Assembly: GCA_002506015.1 (NCBI GenBank)
Contig: DAWR01000136.1
Span: 1-30,424 of the forward strand
Source of the DNA: Candidatus Methanogasteraceae archaeon UBA261
Lineage (GTDB): Archaea; Halobacteriota; Methanosarcinia; Methanosarcinales; Methanogasteraceae
Reading direction: 5' to 3'
DNA length: 30,424 nt
The translations under genes and the position numbers were made by a program. Shown here in pieces: positions 1-30,298 of the stretch. How positions within the stretch are numbered: position 1 is the first letter of the stretch; each line of letters opens with the position of its first letter. The notes under the pieces were generated by a model. The model was not told the origin of the DNA. It did not search any database and worked only from the letters and a program-made list of their open reading frames with translations.

Positions 1-7
1 TGACCAG

Positions 8-60
8 TACTCACAAATCCCATCTTAAAACAGGTTACATCTCTCTGTGCCCTCTGTGGC
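8..60 (+). repeat. Family-2 palindromic intergenic repeat, right part (truncated by window edge)
   Basis: tactcacaaatcccatcttaaaacaggttacatctctctgtgccctctgtggc aligns with 19710-19763 (tactcacaaattccatcctaaaatttgttacatccatctatgaccctctctgga). Its end ctctgtgccctctgtggc is a near reverse complement of gccacatagagcacagag at 19675. Confidence 0.75.
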
Positions 61-110
61 AGTATGATGTGTACCCATGAAAATCGCAGTTTATGCTGGT
101 CGCTGAGTAT

Positions 111-123
111 AGCTAAACACGAC
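111..123 (+). repeat. Shell-I right arm (agctaaacacgac)
   Basis: Reverse complement of the gt(a/g)cgtgtttagct motif at 15003, 22697 and 23771. Lies 33 bp beyond the GGR stop. Confidence 0.5.
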
Positions 124-4278: not shown

Positions 4279-4426
4279 GGTACTTACTCAATATTAGGTG
4301 GATATCCGCCATATAAAACCATGAGATTACACAAGATTGACACAGAAATCTTGTGGAGATGGCTGCGCCACTGCTTCGCAGACTGTGCAATCTTGTGGTT
4401 CCCATCATATAGTAATTGAGCATGTT
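4279..4426 (-). repeat. Family-1 palindromic repeat, copy A (84-bp core 4317-4400 in shell II)
   Basis: Reverse complement of the core reads aaccacaagattgcacagtctgcgaagcagtggcgcagccatctccacaagatttctgtgtcaatcttgtgtaatctcatggtt, collinear with 8692-8775 and 15022-15105. Both flanks also match copy B. Confidence 0.9.
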
Positions 4427-4449
4427 CACAATGTGGCTACTGGAACGAG

Positions 4450-7035: not shown

Positions 7036-8529
7036 ATGTCCCACTTTGAAACCATGCACAAGGACTCAGCAGGCAGGATCGGTAGATTGTACACCGGACA
7101 CGGGAGAATCGAGACTCCCACAGTCATGCCTGTCATCAACCCAAATATACAGATGATACCTGCCTCCGAACTTGCAAAATTCGGAGCAGAGATCGTGATC
7201 ACCAACGCATACATCATATACCGAAATCCGGAACTGATGGACCATGCAATCGAAAAAGGTGTGCATTCCCTGCTCGATTTCGATGGTGCGATCATGACCG
7301 ATTCAGGATCGTATCAGCTATCGGTGTATCATGATATCGAGATCACATCAGACGAGATCGTCCGTTTTCAGCAGAAAATCGGCTCTGACATTGGCGTGCC
7401 GCTCGACATCCCGACGCCGCCAGACGTATCGCACGAACGCGCCGAATCCGAGATGAAGACGACGATTGCGCGATGCAGAGAGGCGCGTGGACTGGTACAG
7501 GAAACGATGCAGCCAGGGGCGCAGTCGCAGGAAACGATGCTCCTTGCAGGTCCAGTTCAGGGCGCAACTCACCCGGATCTGCGATATGAATGTGCACGCA
7601 CGCTCTCCGAGACCGGATTCGACATGTATCCCATCGGTGCGGTTGTGCCGCTGCTCACGAGTTACCGGTTCGCAGAGATGGTGGATGTGATCGTCGCAGC
7701 AAAGAAGGGGCTCCCGCCGGCTGCGCCCGTTCACCTCTTCGGTGCGGGACATCCTGCGATGTTTGCGCTTGCCGTTGCACTCGGATGCGATCTCTTCGAT
7801 TCGGCAGCTTATGCGCTCTACGCAAGGGATGGGCGATATATGACCGCCAGCGGGACGTATCATCTGGATACTCTCCAGCATCTCCCGTGCTCATGCCCAA
7901 TCTGCACGTCATACACCGCAGACGAGTTGAAAAGTGAGTTTGCTAACGGTAACATAATTCCACTTGCAAAACACAATCTTTACGCAACGTACGCAGAGAT
8001 CAACACAATAAAGCAGTGCATAATCGAAGGGAACCTCTGGGAACTCGTTGAACGCAGATGCAGGGCGCATCCGAGGCTGCTCGACGGGCTGAGGCGTGCG
8101 GTTAGCCACGCTGACTGGATCGAGACGCTCGACCCGGTCCGGAAATCGACGTTCTTCTACTGCGGAAGCGAGTCATCACGCCGTTCAGAGGTTTTGAGGT
8201 TTGGAAATCGGCTTGACCGGTTCGATCTGTCCGGAACCGTGCTCATCCGCACGCGGAAGGTCAAGAGAGAGGATGAGTTCGATCATGTTCTCGATCTTAA
8301 ACCGCCGTTCGGTGCGTATCCTGTGGAACTCGGCGAGACATATCCGTTCAACGCGGAGGTTTCGAAGTTTCCGGATCACGATGCGATCGAGTCTGCGCTC
8401 CAAAATGTGCTTCGGCTGATTGAACTCAATTCAGATGCGGAGTTTACGGTTGTATGCGGATGGGATCATCCGTTGATAGCTGATATAAGGGGTCTTCCGA
8501 ATGTGCAAGAAGTTGCGGCGTTGTGGTAG
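7036..8529 (+). CDS. tgtA: Archaeosine tRNA-guanine(15) transglycosylase (short form without C-terminal PUA domain)
   Basis: GRIGRL, ETPTVMPVINP, IMTDSGSYQL, HLFGAGHP, GCDLFDSAAY, Zn site CSCPIC...HN and LVERRCRAHP. SD ggaga upstream. Confidence 0.95.
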   Translation: MSHFETMHKDSAGRIGRLYTGHGRIETPTVMPVINPNIQMIPASELAKFGAEIVITNAYIIYRNPELMDHAIEKGVHSLLDFDGAIMTDSGSYQLSVYHDIEITSDEIVRFQQKIGSDIGVPLDIPTPPDVSHERAESEMKTTIARCREARGLVQETMQPGAQSQETMLLAGPVQGATHPDLRYECARTLSETGFDMYPIGAVVPLLTSYRFAEMVDVIVAAKKGLPPAAPVHLFGAGHPAMFALAVALGCDLFDSAAYALYARDGRYMTASGTYHLDTLQHLPCSCPICTSYTADELKSEFANGNIIPLAKHNLYATYAEINTIKQCIIEGNLWELVERRCRAHPRLLDGLRRAVSHADWIETLDPVRKSTFFYCGSESSRRSEVLRFGNRLDRFDLSGTVLIRTRKVKREDEFDHVLDLKPPFGAYPVELGETYPFNAEVSKFPDHDAIESALQNVLRLIELNSDAEFTVVCGWDHPLIADIRGLPNVQEVAALW

Positions 8530-8668
8530 CCAGACTCGGTTGTATAAGCCGCGGATTGTGCGGTATCGGTCTAACATAAGATTTATCCGAAGAATTCCGT
8601 ATGATATTTGAGTGTGTTTGAATCAATGAGTAAACAGGTCTCGGTTTGTAGGACACCACACAAAAATA

Positions 8669-8812
8669 AATATGCTCAATAACGTGATAGGAACCATAAG
8701 ATCACACAGTCTGCGAAGCATCGGCGCAGCCATCTCCACAAGATTTCTGTCTTGATCTCGTGTAATCTTGTGGTTTTATATGCGCACATCCACACAATAT
8801 TGAATGAGTGCC
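8669..8812 (+). repeat. Family-1 palindromic repeat, copy B (84-bp core 8692-8775 in shell II)
   Basis: Core aaccataagatcacacagtctgcgaagcatcggcgcagccatctccacaagatttctgtcttgatctcgtgtaatcttgtggtt. Flanks atgctcaata and tattgaatgagtgcc. Lies between the convergent tgtA and DUF2103 genes. Confidence 0.9.
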
Positions 8813-8859
8813 CCCAAAAATCTCATATACATCAGCACAAGCGAACGAAACAGACGCCT

Positions 8860-9174
8860 TCAACGGTCCAGTGCATCCGAAAGCATCTCATTCAGCTCGC
8901 GCCGGAGCAATTCTCCCTGCTCGAAATTCTCCACCGTCGTTACGATGCGCAGTTCCTGTGCTGATGTTCCGGATGAGATCAAGAGACGGAGATTGCCTCG
9001 CGCATCGGGGCGCAGCACCTTGGCTGTGGTCTTACCGCCGGCGTGCCCCTTGACACTGATAACCGTGGGAACGATCCGCTTTACCAATGGATGTTTTGCT
9101 ACGATTCTCACTACCTTCTTTCCGGTTCGTCCACTGATTACGGTGCTGTGTGCGCCGCCGAGTTTGTCAGGCAT
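8860..9174 (-). CDS. DUF2103-family protein
   Basis: KLGGAHSTVISGR, HPLVKRIVP, GNLRLL and QELRIVTT pattern. Start at MPDKLGG with ggaga SD; the track uses 9252. Confidence 0.8.
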   Translation of the reverse strand: MPDKLGGAHSTVISGRTGKKVVRIVAKHPLVKRIVPTVISVKGHAGGKTTAKVLRPDARGNLRLLISSGTSAQELRIVTTVENFEQGELLRRELNEMLSDALDR

Positions 9175-9358
9175 TCGAATCTCCAATTCACATTGGGTCA
9201 TGCATGATCGTAATATTTCCTGTAACACCACCCCGAGAGGGGCATCAACCAAATCTTTTTATTCATCTGATACGAAACAAAAACCGTTGCGTCCCCCAGC
9301 GTGTCACCGGATGAAAGATCGAGACGGGGCAGGAAACTGACTGGAACAGGAGATAGAA

Positions 9359-12300
9359 ATGGGAGAATCGTTGCCATTGCAGGAATTAATCGACTTTGAC
9401 GAGCTTCAGGACATTCAGGACGGATTTGCAAAGATTATCCGCGCATCTTCAGTGATCTTTTCACCGGAAGGGGACGCCCTGACCCGTTTCAGCAACCCAA
9501 CCGGTTTTTGTTCGCTGATCCAGTCAACCAAAGAAGGGATGCGGTGCTGTTTCCAGTCATTCACAGATATGGGTCGAAAAGCCCTCGAGTCAGACGAGCC
9601 TGTGATTATGCGTTGCTTCGCGCACGGCGTCCACTTTGCTGCGCCGATCATAATCGATTCTGAGCGCAAAGCAACGATGTTCATGGGACAATTCATAACA
9701 GAGGAGTTCTCTCCCGATCAATTGAAGGAACTCAGAGAAATCGCTGCGCAGATCGACGTGGATCCGGACCGGCTGGTCGCAGAAGCAAAGAAGATGCGGG
9801 TGGTCACAGAAGACGTGGTCCGGAATTATACAACCTCACTGTCACAGACTGTCCGGGCTATTGCGATGCTGGGCGCGCAGGCGGTCGAACTCATGCGGGC
9901 AAAAGACGCTCTCCAGGAGTCACACGACGAACTGGAGTCCCGCGTAAAAGAGCGCACCGCTGAACTCGCTTCAGCAAACACCGGGCTGAAGCGAGAGATT
10001 GCCGAGCGTGAGATTGCCGAAGATCGTATTGATCGCCTGAACAGCGTTCTTAAAGCTATCAGGAATGTTAATCAGTTGATCGTGTCTGAGAAGGACCGAG
10101 ACAATCTCCTCCAGAAAGCCTGTGACATCCTATTGGAGGCGCGGGGCTACGACGCCGCTTGGTTCGGGCTCCTGCGGGAAGATACGACCTTCGAGAGGGT
10201 TATGGGTTCTGACTCAAGACGCGATCCGCCCCGCTTCTGCGATGATATGGTTGACAGGAGTCCTTCACCGTGTTTCAAAGACGCGCTTACCCAGAAAGAG
10301 AGGATCGCGATCGTTGACAAATCCAAAGATTGTGGAGATTGTCCTTTTGGAAGCGCTTATGCCGGAAACGCAACTGTGCTCATCCGTGTCGAACACGCTG
10401 GAAAGCTCTTTGGGCTGCTCGCAATCGCACTTGCCGCCGATGTCGATGTCGATGTCGATGCCACTGCCGATGAGAAAGAACTCCTCAAGGAGGTTGCTTC
10501 CGACATAGCGTTTGCCCTCCATGACATTGAACTGGATGAGGCACGTAAAGCCATTGAGAACGCGCTCCAAGAGAGCGAGGAGAAGTACCGCACCCTAATT
10601 GAGAATGTTCAGGATGGTGTATTCCTCATCCAGGACGGGGAGCTCAAGTTTGTCAACGAGGCATTTGCCAGAATACCCGGCTACACCGTGGAGGAGATCC
10701 GCGGGATGAATTTCGGGGGACTTGTTGCGCCAGAGGACATGGATATGGTTGCTGATCGCTACACCAGGATGATGGCAGGGGAAGATGTGCCCCGGGAGTA
10801 TGAGTTTCATGGCATACGGAAGGGCGAGGATACGCGAACCACCGTTCGTATGACCGTTGGGCTCACCGAGTGTCAGGGTAAGCCGGCAGTGATTGGAACG
10901 GTGAAGGACGTAACCGAGCGCAAAGCGATTGAAGATGCGCTCCGGGAGAGCGAGATTATGTATAGGACCCTTTACGATTCGTCCAGAGACGCTATCATGA
11001 TGCTGACGCCAGAAGAAGGGTTCATAGGCGGAAATTCCGCCATTCTGGAGATGTTTGGGTGCAAAGATGAGACAGAGTTCACGTCCATGACCCCGGCTGA
11101 CAGCTCTCCCGAATACCAGCCGGACGGATCTCTGTCCCTGTCAGAATCTCAGAAGGCGATGGCGATTGCAATGGAGAAAGGATCGCATTACTTTGAGTGG
11201 AAACACAGACGGGTGGACGGGGTGGAGTTCTTTGCTGATGTTTTACTGACCAGAGTGAAACTCGATCACAAAAATTTTTTGCAGGCGACAGTCAGGGACA
11301 TAACCGAGCGTAAGATTGCAGAAGCGGCTCTGCACGAGAGCGAGGCGAAGTACCGCCGACTCACAGAGACAATAGAGGACGCGATCATATCGTTCGGCAT
11401 GGATACGCGTGTCACATATCTCAACCAAGCGGCGATAGAACTGGGAGGTTATAGTGAGGCAGAGGCGCTGCAGATGAAGATCACAGATATACTGCCCGAA
11501 GATCAGATCTCCGAATTCTATGAACGTTTTTCCAAGCGTGCTGCCGGTGAGAATGGACTTTTCATCTACGAAGTGGATTTTATCAGCAAGGCAGGAGAGC
11601 GGATACCGGTGGAAGTGAATTCCTCGATGATTGTAAAGGACAATGAACAATCGGGAATACTTCTCGTCTGCCGCGACATGACCGAGCGAAAAATCGTGGA
11701 TCAAGCGCTGCGCGAGAGTGAGGAGAAGTACCGCACCCTAATTGAGAATATTCAGGATGGTGTATTCCTCATCCAGGACGGGGAGCTCAAGTTTGTCAAC
11801 GAGGCATTTGCCAGAATACCCGGCTACACCGTGGAGGAGATGCTCGGGATGAATTTCGGGGGACTTGTTGCGCCAGAGGACATGGATATGGTTGCTGATC
11901 GCTACACCAGGATGATGGCAGGGGAAGATGCACCCATGGAGTATGAGTTTCATGGCATACGGAAGGGCGAGGATACGCGAACCACCGTTCGTATGACCGT
12001 TGGGCCCACCGAGTATCAGGGTAAGCCGGCAGTGATTGGAACGGTGAAGGACGTAACCGAGCGCAAAGCGATTGAAGATGCACTTTTTGAGTCGGAGGAA
12101 AAATACAGGGTGATGTTTGAGACTGCTAAAGACGCCATATTCCTGTCTGACGAGACCGGGAAGTTCGTGGATGTCAATCAGGCGGCTTGCGAATCGCTCG
12201 GCTACAGCAAAGAAGAATTGCTAAAACTGACCGATAGGGAGATTGACGCAGAATCAACAGGATACAAAGCCTTCCAGAAAGTTCGGAATGGTGTGGAGAA

Positions 12301-14131
12301 AGCGATCTTTCGAGTGAACCAGCAGAAGAAAGATGGGGCACTCCTGCCCGTGGAGATCAGTGGAGGACTCCTCAACATTGGAGCTAAAAGAATCTTCCTG
12401 GCAATTGCTCGTGACATCACTGAGCGCAAGAAAGCAGAAGAAAAATTAAAAGAATCCGAAGAAAAATACAGGGAGCTTGTGGAGAGCGCAAACAGTATTA
12501 TTCTGCGGTTGAGCGCCGATGGTAGAATCCTGTTCTTCAACAAATTTGCGCAGAGGTTCTTCGGCTACACAGAGGATGAGATTCTGGGCAGAAACGCAGT
12601 CGGAACCATTGTGCCCGAGACGGATACCATGGGGCGCGATCTTAGGGCGATGATTATGGATATCGGGCAGAATCCTGAGCGATACACCACACATGAGAAC
12701 GAGAACGTGCGCCGGAACGGTGAACGTGTCTGGGTCTCATGGACGAACAGGGTGGTTCGTGACAGCGAGGGGCGCGTCACAGAGATGCTCTGCATCGGAA
12801 ACGACATCACAGAGCGCAAACAGCTCGAGGAGCGGATGTGCCGGGTAAACGATGAACTGGAGGAACGGGTGGAGGAGAGGACGGTTGAACTAAAACGCGC
12901 AAACGAACAGTTGAACGCGACGATTGCGCAGGGGTATCATGCGCAGAAGATGGAATCACTGGGGATTCTTGCCGGAGGGATCGCACACGACTTCAACAAC
13001 TTCTTAACCATAACTCTTGGCAACATCTCTATTGCAAAGACGGTTGCAGACCCAAATGGAAAGCTGTTCGGGATGCTTTCCGATGCAGAGAAGGCGTCGC
13101 TTCGTGCGAAGGATCTGACCTTGCAGTTACTCGCATTCTCCAGAAGTGGAGAGCCTATCAAGAGAACAATCCGGATCGCAAAGCTGATCGAGGACTCCAC
13201 AATCTTCGCACAACGGGGCTCTAATGTGCAGTGCGAGTTTGAGATACCGGACCATCTCATGAGCGTGGACGCTGACGAGGGGCAGATCAGTCAGGTCGCA
13301 AGCAACATCATAATCAATGCCTGCCAGGCGATGCCTGATGGCGGCACGATCAGGGTCAAGTGTGAGAATATGAAGATTGAGGCGGTTGGGGCAGTAGCCG
13401 GCGAGGCAGGAGAGTCCATACCACTTGCCGGGGGCGACTACGTGAGGATATTGATCAAAGACGAGGGAACCGGCATCCCCGAAGAGCAGATCAACCGGAT
13501 ATTCGATCCGTTCTTCACGACCAAAGAGGAAGGAACTGGTCTCGGGCTTGCAACAGCGCACTCCATCATCGAAAAACACGGCGGATACCTGACCGTCGAA
13601 TCCACGGTCGGTCTTGGATCGACGTTTTATGTATATCTCCCGGCTGCAAAAGAGGGGGTACTGGCAGAAGCGGCTCCGGAGACCTCGGCGGGGGACGGTC
13701 ATGGTGCCGATGATACCGGCGTCAGTGCCAGTGGGCGGATTCTGGTACTGGATGACGAAGAAGATATAAGAGAGCTTCTTGGCATGATCCTTGTGCGTTT
13801 CGGATACGTCGTCGAGTTCTCAGTAGATGGTGCTGAGACGATTGCGATGTACAGAGGAGCCATGGGTTCAGACCATGCGTTCGATGTTGTGATAGTCGAC
13901 CTCACAATCCCGGGCGGGATTGGCGGGGGGGATGTTATCAGAGAACTGACCCAAATTGATCCTACTGTCAAAGCGATCGTCTCAAGCGGTTACGCGAATG
14001 ACCCAATGATGTCGGACTACCGAAAGTATGGTTTCTCAGGGGTGATCTCCAAGCCTTACGAGGTCAGGGATTTGATCAAGACAGTTCGGGAAGTGATAGG
14101 TGTGGCAGAAGGGAGTCATGAACCTGATTGA
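9359..14131 (+). CDS. Hybrid sensor histidine kinase: PocR - GAF - 6x PAS - HisKA - HATPase_c - receiver
   Basis: PocR-like start (LQELIDFDELQDIQDGF...FCSLI...CFAHG), six PAS/PAC units ending DVTERK/DITERK, H-box GIAHDFNN, N/G boxes (IIINACQAM, DEGTGI, FFTTK, GTGLGL), receiver VLDD...VDLTIP...SKPY. Confidence 0.95.
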   Translation: MGESLPLQELIDFDELQDIQDGFAKIIRASSVIFSPEGDALTRFSNPTGFCSLIQSTKEGMRCCFQSFTDMGRKALESDEPVIMRCFAHGVHFAAPIIIDSERKATMFMGQFITEEFSPDQLKELREIAAQIDVDPDRLVAEAKKMRVVTEDVVRNYTTSLSQTVRAIAMLGAQAVELMRAKDALQESHDELESRVKERTAELASANTGLKREIAEREIAEDRIDRLNSVLKAIRNVNQLIVSEKDRDNLLQKACDILLEARGYDAAWFGLLREDTTFERVMGSDSRRDPPRFCDDMVDRSPSPCFKDALTQKERIAIVDKSKDCGDCPFGSAYAGNATVLIRVEHAGKLFGLLAIALAADVDVDVDATADEKELLKEVASDIAFALHDIELDEARKAIENALQESEEKYRTLIENVQDGVFLIQDGELKFVNEAFARIPGYTVEEIRGMNFGGLVAPEDMDMVADRYTRMMAGEDVPREYEFHGIRKGEDTRTTVRMTVGLTECQGKPAVIGTVKDVTERKAIEDALRESEIMYRTLYDSSRDAIMMLTPEEGFIGGNSAILEMFGCKDETEFTSMTPADSSPEYQPDGSLSLSESQKAMAIAMEKGSHYFEWKHRRVDGVEFFADVLLTRVKLDHKNFLQATVRDITERKIAEAALHESEAKYRRLTETIEDAIISFGMDTRVTYLNQAAIELGGYSEAEALQMKITDILPEDQISEFYERFSKRAAGENGLFIYEVDFISKAGERIPVEVNSSMIVKDNEQSGILLVCRDMTERKIVDQALRESEEKYRTLIENIQDGVFLIQDGELKFVNEAFARIPGYTVEEMLGMNFGGLVAPEDMDMVADRYTRMMAGEDAPMEYEFHGIRKGEDTRTTVRMTVGPTEYQGKPAVIGTVKDVTERKAIEDALFESEEKYRVMFETAKDAIFLSDETGKFVDVNQAACESLGYSKEELLKLTDREIDAESTGYKAFQKVRNGVEKAIFRVNQQKKDGALLPVEISGGLLNIGAKRIFLAIARDITERKKAEEKLKESEEKYRELVESANSIILRLSADGRILFFNKFAQRFFGYTEDEILGRNAVGTIVPETDTMGRDLRAMIMDIGQNPERYTTHENENVRRNGERVWVSWTNRVVRDSEGRVTEMLCIGNDITERKQLEERMCRVNDELEERVEERTVELKRANEQLNATIAQGYHAQKMESLGILAGGIAHDFNNFLTITLGNISIAKTVADPNGKLFGMLSDAEKASLRAKDLTLQLLAFSRSGEPIKRTIRIAKLIEDSTIFAQRGSNVQCEFEIPDHLMSVDADEGQISQVASNIIINACQAMPDGGTIRVKCENMKIEAVGAVAGEAGESIPLAGGDYVRILIKDEGTGIPEEQINRIFDPFFTTKEEGTGLGLATAHSIIEKHGGYLTVESTVGLGSTFYVYLPAAKEGVLAEAAPETSAGDGHGADDTGVSASGRILVLDDEEDIRELLGMILVRFGYVVEFSVDGAETIAMYRGAMGSDHAFDVVIVDLTIPGGIGGGDVIRELTQIDPTVKAIVSSGYANDPMMSDYRKYGFSGVISKPYEVRDLIKTVREVIGVAEGSHEPD
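10571..10938 (+). repeat. Intragenic PAS duplication, copy 1
   Basis: 368 bp, with 10 mismatches by manual count to 11714-12081 (offset 1143 bp, in frame). Confidence 0.95.
11714..12081 (+). repeat. Intragenic PAS duplication, copy 2
   Basis: About 97% identical to 10571-10938. Confidence 0.95.
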
Positions 14132-15002: not shown

Positions 15003-15130
15003 GTACGTGTTTAGCTTAGCTAACCACAAGATCACACAGTCTGCGAAACAGCGGCGCAGCCATCTCCACAATAGTTCTGTGTTAATCTCTTGAAATCTCG
15101 TGGTTTTTTCGTCTCAGCTGAACACATACG
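15003..15130 (+). repeat. Family-1 palindromic repeat, copy C (84-bp core 15022-15105 in shell I)
   Basis: gtacgtgtttagcttagct - core - cagctgaacacatacg. Lies between the convergent mtxX and rpl14 genes. Confidence 0.9.
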
Positions 15131-20106: not shown

Positions 20107-20613
20107 ATGACTAGTACGGACGAGTTACAGGTACAATCATTACAAGATGAACTTGAGGACTGCAAGGCGAATAACAGAGCATTGACGATACTTGCTGGCG
20201 AAGTTTCGATGATACTCGACGAGATGGCAAAGACGGACGAGGCAAAGAGTATCTGTAGGATTATGGGAGAAGATGCGGGAAGACGTCTTGGCAAGAACAC
20301 GAAAGATCGCTTTGGCGCGATTGCCAAGGTGGAGGAAGCTCTGGACATTCTCCTATACCATACCGAATTGTTGCGCGGGTACCGTATCGAGATTGATCAT
20401 ATCGAAGATGGTACGATCTATATCAACGTACTCTCATGTTTTGTGCGAAACATTCTCAGGGATCGCAAACTCCTGACAGCATCCCCACTCTGTAGCATCA
20501 CGCGCGGATATCTCGAAGGAGCGTTGGAGGAGCTCACCGGAAAAAATGTGAGCGTAGAGATTGCGTACGGAGACGTGGACGGTGTGTGTCGGGAAAAGAT
20601 TATCATTAAGTGA
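20107..20613 (+). CDS. V4R/MetOD1-like small-ligand-binding domain protein, paralog 1
   Basis: MGEDAGRRLG helix, SCFVR, SPLCSITRGYLEGALEELTG, GVCRE. Three Cys at 111, 129 and 161. SD ggagg upstream. Confidence 0.75.
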   Translation: MTSTDELQVQSLQDELEDCKANNRALTILAGEVSMILDEMAKTDEAKSICRIMGEDAGRRLGKNTKDRFGAIAKVEEALDILLYHTELLRGYRIEIDHIEDGTIYINVLSCFVRNILRDRKLLTASPLCSITRGYLEGALEELTGKNVSVEIAYGDVDGVCREKIIIK

Positions 20614-20812: not shown

Positions 20813-21319
20813 ATGCCCAACACCAAACAGATGCAGATAGATTCACTGGAAGATGAACTAAAGGATTATAAAGCCCTTACCAAGGCATTAACGATACTCG
20901 TTGGTGAAGTTTCATGTATAATGAATGACATGGCAGAACCAGAAGAGGCTGCAAACTTCTTCGTGCATATGGGCGAAGCTTCGGGAAAGCGGCTCGGGAA
21001 AGCGACAAAAGAGCGTTTTGGCGAGATTGAAAACGTGGAAGAGGCTCTTGACACGTTCATTCATCACACAGACATGTGGTATGGATATAAGATGGAACTC
21101 GACCACATAGAGGGCAACGAGATACACATCAATATATTCAAGTGTTTCATACGTGACATTCTCAGAGATCGCAAACTCACGACCGAGTCCCCGCTTTGCA
21201 GCATCACGCGCGGGTATCTCAGAGGAGCGTTGAAGGAGCTCACCGGAAAAAATGTGGACGTAGAGGTTGTGTATTGTGACGTAAACGGTGTCTGTCGAGA
21301 GAAGATCATAGTCGAATAA
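20813..21319 (+). CDS. V4R/MetOD1-like protein, paralog 2
   Basis: Same length (168 aa) as paralog 1 and 102/168 identical by manual gap-free alignment. Has an extra Cys at 155. Confidence 0.78.
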   Translation: MPNTKQMQIDSLEDELKDYKALTKALTILVGEVSCIMNDMAEPEEAANFFVHMGEASGKRLGKATKERFGEIENVEEALDTFIHHTDMWYGYKMELDHIEGNEIHINIFKCFIRDILRDRKLTTESPLCSITRGYLRGALKELTGKNVDVEVVYCDVNGVCREKIIVE

Positions 21320-22521: not shown

Positions 22522-22696
22522 GAGCAGGAGTTATCCGGCTGCCTCACGAAACAGCGATACCTTTGAGATGGGCAACTACCCTGAAATGGCTCCTGCATGC
22601 CAGCCTCCGCATAAATACGCTTGGGACAATTGGAGTGGTGATATGCTGGCACTCTCAATTCCTGGATATCCAAAGTCTAAAATCTGTCGAAGAGAC

Positions 22697-22722
22697 GTAC
22701 GTGTTTAGCTAACCAACATACG
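22697..22722 (+). repeat. Apparently empty shell-I element
   Basis: gtacgtgtttagctaaccaacatacg: left arm as at 15003 and 23771, directly followed by a degenerate right arm with no core. Confidence 0.6.
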
Positions 22723-22757
22723 AAGAGACAAGAAATGATCGTGGAGAATGTATCGAA

Positions 22758-23770: not shown

Positions 23771-23868
23771 GTGCGTGTTTAGCTAACCACAATATTACAC
23801 AGATTCCCACAAGATTTCTGTCTTGATCTCGTGAAATCTCGTGGTTTTCGCCTTATCTAAACACATAC
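23771..23868 (+). repeat. Family-1 palindromic repeat, copy D (62-bp internally deleted core 23785-23846 in shell I)
   Basis: gtgcgtgtttagct-aaccacaatattacacagattcccacaagatttctgtcttgatctcgtgaaatctcgtggtt-...-atctaaacacatac. Lacks the inner ctgcg/cgcag hairpin. Lies between convergent genes. Confidence 0.88.
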
Positions 23869-30090: not shown

Positions 30091-30298
30091 GGCACCACAT
30101 CCTTTAACTGATCACAGGATGCGGAGTCTGCGGACATAAAACTTTGGAACATGCTCAATAGTTCTAAGGATCAGGTGCGAAGTGCCGTAGAGCAGGATTG
30201 ATGCATTACTAATTATTACATGACTTTAGGCTAAATCAAATTTCTTGCCATCCTGAATGAGATACTTTTATATAGGATGAGCACATATTCTATACTGA

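Follow-up and report, generated by a model that had tools for sequence, protein, structure and literature searches.

Two kinds of inverted-repeat shell enclose one palindromic core in the DNA analysed here. Sequence comparison indicates, with a probability of roughly 0.85, that these shells are the TIRs of two related single-ORF insertion sequences (ISs) of the IS66 family (ISBst12-like), the units of shell plus core being non-autonomous MITEs. The window, i.e. the whole stretch of 30,424 nt that was analysed, is contig C208 of genome G000 (2.37 Mb in 224 contigs, 50% GC). The nearest named relatives of this genome are MAGs of ANME-2 and Candidatus Methanogaster, and its host is a methane-oxidising archaeon that looks ANME-2c-like. 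No ANME-2c archaeon has been cultured; the group has a key role in marine methane oxidation and is known genomically only from fragmented MAGs.

The ~84-nt core is found four times in the window. The two shells, the single core and the four copies (A to D) reported in the initial annotation were all recovered, with refined limits. Shell II, with outer arms GWACATGCTCAATA...TATTGAGTAAGTAC, is common to copies A and B, and shell I, with arms GTRCGTGTTTAGCT...AGCTRAACACATAC, to copies C and D. The palindromic core AACCACAAGATYACACAG...CTYGTGNAATCTYGTGGTT, common to all four, is a hairpin with five copies of the motif ATCTYGTGG/CCACRAGAT and an optional module M2 of 22-26 nt. In the window M2 is a 26-nt inner hairpin (TCTGCGAAGCAGCGGCGCAGCCATCT), present in A, B and C and missing from D. 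Single-strand folds displayed three nested hairpin levels, corresponding to shell, core and M2.

Copy A (8668-8813, forward strand) is a shell II MITE with core and M2. Its left TIR lies at 8668-8685, the core hairpin at 8692-8775 with M2 at 8710-8735, and the right arm, holding the TATA-like TTTTATATG and the TIR, at 8776-8813, all on the forward strand. The flanking 8-mers ACAAAAAT (8660-8667) and CCAAAAAT (8814-8821) match at 7/8 positions. This copy stands between the 3' ends of an ORF at 7036-8529 (forward strand) and a DUF2103 gene at 8860-9252 (reverse strand). A role of copy A as promoter was rejected: the ORF at 8804-9340 that overlaps it has no family match, its ATG at 8804 is a spurious start, and the true neighbour, the DUF2103 gene, is on the opposite strand. 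Copy B (4280-4427, reverse strand), likewise of shell II with core and M2, is flanked by CACATTGT (4435-4428) and CATATCGT (4279-4272), which match at 6/8 positions. It has the stop of a DUF5788 gene on one side and, on the other, the start of the RNase HII gene, upstream of which it lies. At the corresponding site of a 94%-identical relative (L004) there is a different repeat, and the contig ends at the same place.

The shell I MITE copy C (15003-15129, forward strand; TIRs at 15003-15016 and 15116-15129) contains core and M2 and has a target duplication of 7/8 (CAAAAAAG / GAAAAAAG). Like copy A, it is placed between convergent gene ends. Copy D (23771-23868, forward strand), also of shell I, has the core without M2. 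Its target duplication matches at 4/8 only, and it is an older insertion.

The core-less shell described at 22697-22722 exists at 22697-22721 on the forward strand (termed E), but its arms do not strictly abut. This 25-nt shell I remnant, GTACGTGTTTAGCTAACCAACATAC, begins with the left TIR, continues with the 5 nt at the start of the core (AACCA) and ends in the final 6 nt of the right TIR, so that the right arm lacks its first 8 nt. The 8-mer GAAGAGAC stands on both sides of it (22689-22696 and 22722-22729) as a perfect duplication. Given this duplication and the 5 nt of core that were kept, E is probably an internally deleted MITE, and its sequence is compatible with the loss of DNA between two imperfect direct repeats, AGCTAACCAC and AGCTAAACAC. 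A second remnant of this kind is present on contig C173 of the same genome.

Both lone arms of the initial annotation could be located. The one at 111-123 (reverse strand) belongs to shell I and has lost 1 nt. A nested miniature element of family Y (TACTCAGCRACCRGCATAAACTGCGATTTT...) adjoins it at a TA, occupying positions 1-110 and extending to the contig start. This arm is conserved in L004, but the repeats beyond it differ. At 30150-30163 (forward strand) a solo shell II-like arm, GAACATGCTCAATA, was found with neither core, partner arm nor adjoining repeat, and it could be either the residue of an element or a match by chance.

Two gene features of the window were also observed. A 1590-aa ORF (9359-14131) contains internal DNA repeats at 10544-10843 and 11687-11986 (94%) and shorter ones, which a recently duplicated repeated-domain gene would explain; its domains might be PAS-type sensors. 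Two adjacent ORFs of 168 aa (20107-20613 and 20813-21319), which may be tandem paralogues, share a 189-nt stretch (20415-20603/21121-21309) with 79% DNA identity.

By BLAST, the core and its shells were found at 198 loci of the 2.37-Mb genome, i.e. as a family of about 200 copies. The shell I 13-mer GTAYGTGTTTAGC occurs 135 times in this genome at ≤1 mismatch (expected <1), and k-mers of the family dominate the high-copy 14-mers. The nested-repeat pattern is therefore far beyond chance. The units are, as is usual for MITEs, short (25-190 nt), non-coding and multi-copy. Apart from G000, 23 of 24 genomes from its taxonomic family, which cover four genera, contain the elements, as do 2 of 3 from a second taxonomic family. 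None was found in the 13 other genomes of the same order that were searched.

DNA runs of public sediment and seep metagenomes displayed spikes in depth at the elements, with a 10- to 400-fold increase, as well as breaks in the Logan contigs, and no clean empty alleles. Several contigs of related MAGs likewise terminate within or next to these repeats. The MITE community thus explains assembly gaps.

Shells as ends of IS66-family insertion sequences

The shell I arm continues into many different sequences: the left end of the core (at least 39 times), its right end as reverse complement (at least 46 times) and at least six unrelated repeat families. This variety pointed to a shared transposon terminus and not to a target. 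The 8-bp duplications together with ends beginning with GTA suggested the IS66 family, for which a target duplication of 8 bp is typical.

A Pfam search for DDE_Tnp_IS66 revealed a single truncated transposase gene in G000 and many genes in the other genomes of the same taxonomic family, with hits in 18 of 26. At four loci of same-family genomes, IS66 transposase genes (PF03050) are bracketed by perfect inverted GTAYGTGTTTAGC arms: L099 (128-1571), L100 (939-2381), L102 (1072-2517) and L120 (1400-3028). These IS copies measure 1.44-1.63 kb each, and a fifth bracketed copy (L112) is deleted to 841 nt. The 1443-nt element of L100 has a single long sense ORF (1123-2325, 400 aa) matching DDE_Tnp_IS66 with E = 3e-41 and zf-IS66 weakly. 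Shell I is thus exactly the 13-nt TIR of a 1.44-kb single-ORF IS66-family IS. The TIRs of the ISs start with GTAY; beyond the 13-nt TIR, MITE and IS have almost no sequence in common. None of the five bracketed copies in the relatives displays a target duplication of the IS itself.

Shell II leads to a second, distant transposase of the same type. The first 24 nt of the shell (GTACATGCTCAATAACTTGTGGTA) form the end of that element: an IS66-type transposase ORF (L126) has its stop 23 nt away from them, and this end was detected at six further places in five genomes. Among 27 genomes of the family no full-length shell II IS was found, the copies being one-ended or degraded. The right end of this IS, which was seen at one end only, would be ...TATATGCGGATATCCACACAATATTGAGTAAGTAC. 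The assembled G000 has no intact shell I or shell II IS. It retains remnants of both IS ends and the truncated transposase, which is 82% identical to that of L100. The IS256 and ISL3 transposases of G000 were considered as partners as well and were rejected, no shell arms being present at their loci.

A third IS66-type subfamily with the TIR GTAACTACTCAcC, which is nearly the TIR of the Deinococcus element ISDge4, was observed in relatives (L105 481-2044, L108 658-2195 and L101 737-2291). The k-mer GTAACTACTCAGGTA, with about 11 copies in G000, matches this subfamily. This suggests a third MITE shell.

Target duplications were evaluated over shell pairs. For shell I (n = 34), 7 pairs have a perfect 8/8 duplication, 5 match at 7/8 and 1 at 6/8, against 0.2, 0.2 and 0.4 expected from shuffled pairings; in sum, 13 of the 34 pairs reach ≥6/8, with about 0.8 expected. 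When all registers were scanned for shell II, only the register GTAC...GTAC gave a signal: on average 4.26 of the 8 positions match, as opposed to about 2.3, and 6 of 38 pairs reach ≥7/8. Shell II copies of other genera have intact duplications of 8/8 and 7/8. In both shell types, the 8-bp duplications flank the shells. Around the core, a reading of the core-shell junctions revealed neither a TA nor any other duplication, and the core has no terminal-repeat signature of its own.

On these grounds, mobilisation in trans by an IS66 transposase appears likely. The IS-encoded DDE transposase would move the MITEs through their 13-24-nt ends, insertion would produce the 8-bp target duplication, and the palindromic core would travel as internal cargo.

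Mosaic structure and conservation of the core

The initial annotation had proposed to collect and classify arm pairs and their contents. A blastn-short search gave 24 I/I and 19 II/II pairs together with 7 chimeras (5 left-I/right-II and 2 left-II/right-I), and core-less shells and other fillings exist as well. Shells and core therefore do not co-vary as two monolithic subfamilies. One chimeric I/II element has a 7/8 duplication, which makes its movement as a single unit probable. Variants of the core and shell types co-vary only in part: ATCTCGTGAAAT is found in 12 of 16 shell I cores and 2 of 14 shell II cores, M2 in both shell types, and a long internal module in shell I only. Some cores are inverted relative to one arm.

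The elements form a length series of 142, 119, 109, 97, 87 and 55-59 nt, with breakpoints within the repeated motif CCACRAGAT/ATCTYGTGG. At least six core-less shell II elements of 52-59 nt were counted. Shell I has several unrelated fillings, among them that of a 188-nt element with a perfect 8/8 duplication and quite different content; copies of its family on contigs C149 and C220 are inside shell II elements. Families Y and Z, with ends TACTCAGC... and TACTTCAC..., have TA before 6/10 and 25/31 ends, respectively, which suggests a TA duplication like that of IS630/Tc1. Both recur where shell I meets the core, at the TA within AGC-TA-ACCAC. The chimeric shells, the different fillings and the nested TA-duplicating MITEs reveal a community of MITEs that recombine and nest.

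The mosaic would fit deletion between short repeats and recombination or conversion via the palindrome as sources of variants. Deletions between short direct repeats could give the length series and the "empty shells", whereas ectopic recombination or gene conversion via the core could account for chimeras, inverted cores and module differences. The third apparent source is the genuine insertion of other MITEs into the elements, which does occur.

Further repeats were observed in G000. Families Y (TACTCAGCRACCGGCATAAACTGCGATT...) and Z (TACTTCACACCGCCACAACTTGAG...) occur at window positions 1-110 and across the genome, for example at C157:13628, C114:12873 and C143:4126-4283. The repeat GGCACYGTCGATTTTTCCAGTG GAATCGCCATGCC... 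is a recurrent host of shell I MITEs at the same 8-mer, TTCCAGTG (C103:4883, C157:30347, C143:4409, C220:4194, C56:15162 and C127:79), which could reflect target preference or composite amplification. A 32-nt sequence, ACGCAGAGGGTTGAAAACGGTCTCAAAACTCT (about 10 copies), lies within other nested repeats, including the insert of copy C in the relative G001, and may be part of a CRISPR array or a further miniature element.

The core is more conserved than expected for passive cargo. In other genera it is about 90-92% identical to that of copy C, while a single protein compared across the genera is about 76% identical. The difference between ~90% core identity and ~76% protein identity is beyond simple neutral cargo. 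A possible though unlikely explanation is that the core is a conserved functional hairpin array, which ISBst12-type transposases would need in cis, as subterminal binding sites, or which the host would select as an RNA or protein-binding element. It would spread between different IS66-type shells by gene conversion, so that core-less shells could be refilled.

It is improbable, too, that the core is a host-selected module hitch-hiking in the MITEs, an explanation that is compatible with the shells being IS66 ends. Such a module might act as a structured small RNA or as an array for protein binding; in shell I units, the hairpin followed by a T-run could serve as a terminator, and TTTATATG in the right arm of shell II as a portable promoter. 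This explanation would agree with the identity of ~90% over four genera, with the presence of the core in two TIR families and with the five ordered copies of its 9-nt motif. However, this conservation could also be attributed to recent amplification or to transfer between co-resident ANME-2c, and the copies decay and drop parts of the core freely. The fold of copy D is better than that of its shuffles (z = -3.7), but the folds of copies A and C are not (z = -1.1 and -1.5), and across the whole window no Rfam match reached the gathering score. Divergent intergenic regions contain 3 elements against about 8 expected, a mild deficit (tandem 21 and convergent 13, against about 20 and 9), but the gene contexts come from crude ORF calls, and neither this deficit nor the convergent excess is significant. 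Only two metatranscriptome runs contained 5-7% of the words.

Insertions at orthologous sites

Filled and empty sites were compared with two further genomes, G001 and G003. In G003, which is of the same genus, the site of copy C contains a single AAAAAAAG and neither shell nor core. In G001 the same site is filled, without M2 and with ~400 nt of further repeats nested inside. At the site of E, G003 likewise lacks the element and one of its duplicates, 33 nt in all. A core-less shell II element of 59 nt on contig C165 of G000 lies within a perfect duplication, CCTGTTTG, whereas neither G001 nor G003 has any element at this site. From this duplication and the unoccupied sites it follows that core-less shells are insertions themselves, which moved as such or lost the core very soon after. 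The units of copy C, E and C165 are thus present or absent as wholes at orthologous sites, which is the behaviour of MITEs. Copy D is common to G003, where 23 nt more of the core have been deleted in place, and copy A has an orthologous filled copy in G001. The G003 sites orthologous to copy A and to the core-less elements on C206 and C57 of G000 have other repeats or are rearranged.

Module differences were also seen between orthologous copies whose flanks are 94% identical. M2 is present or absent between copy C and its orthologue on G001:C168, and an arm subvariant (CAATAACA vs CGGGTAACT) distinguishes G000:C57 from G001:C110 and G003:C67. This suggests gene conversion among dispersed copies.

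The locus on C57 deserves separate mention. Its allele bears the core in one of the three genomes and is core-less in the other two, and the local tree would favour a gain of the core. Since the locus is rearranged in G003, it is not decisive for such a gain, and it hints that core-less shells may regain a core. Beside the rearranged orthologue, on G003:C420 (L165), positions 1230-1500 hold a short lysine/arginine-rich coding-like fragment, after which comes the DNA polymerase II DP2 gene; the G003 locus seems to be rearranged at the repeat.

These sites bear directly on the model of the initial annotation, in which a mobile cassette, the core, inserts site-specifically into the middle of palindromes that already exist, empty shells being targets not yet used. 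The constant core-shell junctions, the existence of core-less shells and the C57 allele would all agree with it, and in shell II the direct repeat CTYGTGGT brackets the core and could be read as an 8-bp duplication. However, CTYGTGGT belongs to the motif of the palindrome itself, and in shell I no duplication flanks the core; the duplications are found at the shells. The empty orthologous sites of copy C, E and C165 lack shell and core together. The shells cannot be regarded as passive targets either, being IS66 TIRs around transposase genes, and E and the C165 element are themselves insertions with perfect duplications, E being a recent one that keeps bases of the core. Left-I/right-II chimeras also misfit a central insertion into one palindrome. 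The cassette model is largely refuted for copies C and E and is very improbable. The modules do recombine, but the direction of that model is wrong: the core rides inside IS66-type ends.

REP/BIME-like palindromic units moved by a RAYT (an IS200/IS605-type tyrosine transposase) would also be intergenic mosaics of short palindromic modules in both orientations, but REPs are 20-40-nt hairpins without target duplications, whereas the units found here measure 100-150 nt, have TIRs identical to those of DDE IS66 elements and are flanked by 8-bp duplications, which leaves this explanation a negligible probability.

Comparison with known systems

MITEs as such are known, and the elements described here are no new kind of mobile element; the host group is one for which no published description of them was found. 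A literature search on ANME and MITEs gave no paper describing MITEs in ANME archaea, and the part of the literature covered by a limited search on IS66, MITEs and archaea contained no statement on IS66-derived MITEs. The MITE community makes intergenic regions strongly different between near relatives, and its insertion polymorphism could supply markers for strain tracking. Furthermore, an apparently active transposition system of the ISBst12/IS66 type in archaea may serve as a guide to the mechanism of a poorly understood IS family.

The elements resemble the Sulfolobus SM elements, RUP/IS630-Spn1 and Correia elements in being short, non-coding and intergenic, with TIRs identical to those of an IS, a duplication of fixed length and ~200 copies. 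Insertion polymorphism between close relatives and nesting are further common features. Unlike these systems, they have a partner from the IS66 family (ISBst12 group) and reside in an uncultured ANME-2c-like archaeon; one hairpin is common to two TIR types, and chimeras are frequent.

Among autonomous elements, ISDge4 of Deinococcus geothermalis (ISBst12 group) has a single ORF, the TIR GTGACTACTCAGCA and an 8-bp direct repeat (PMC12898284). The present system agrees with ISDge4 and the ISBst12 group in the single DDE_Tnp_IS66 ORF and in TIRs of 13-14 nt beginning with GTA/GTG; an 8-bp direct repeat was seen here for the MITEs but for none of the five bracketed IS copies. It differs from ISDge4 in its TIRs, GTAYGTGTTTAGC and GTACATGCTCAATA, and in its archaeal host, and the window has miniature derivatives only.

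Combinatorial mosaics of palindromic modules in variable number are also typical of BIMEs and the pneumococcal BOX elements. These lack the TIRs of DDE ISs and the 8-bp duplications that characterise the present elements, and the mosaic is explained better by deletion, recombination and nesting of true MITEs than by a BIME- or BOX-like organisation.
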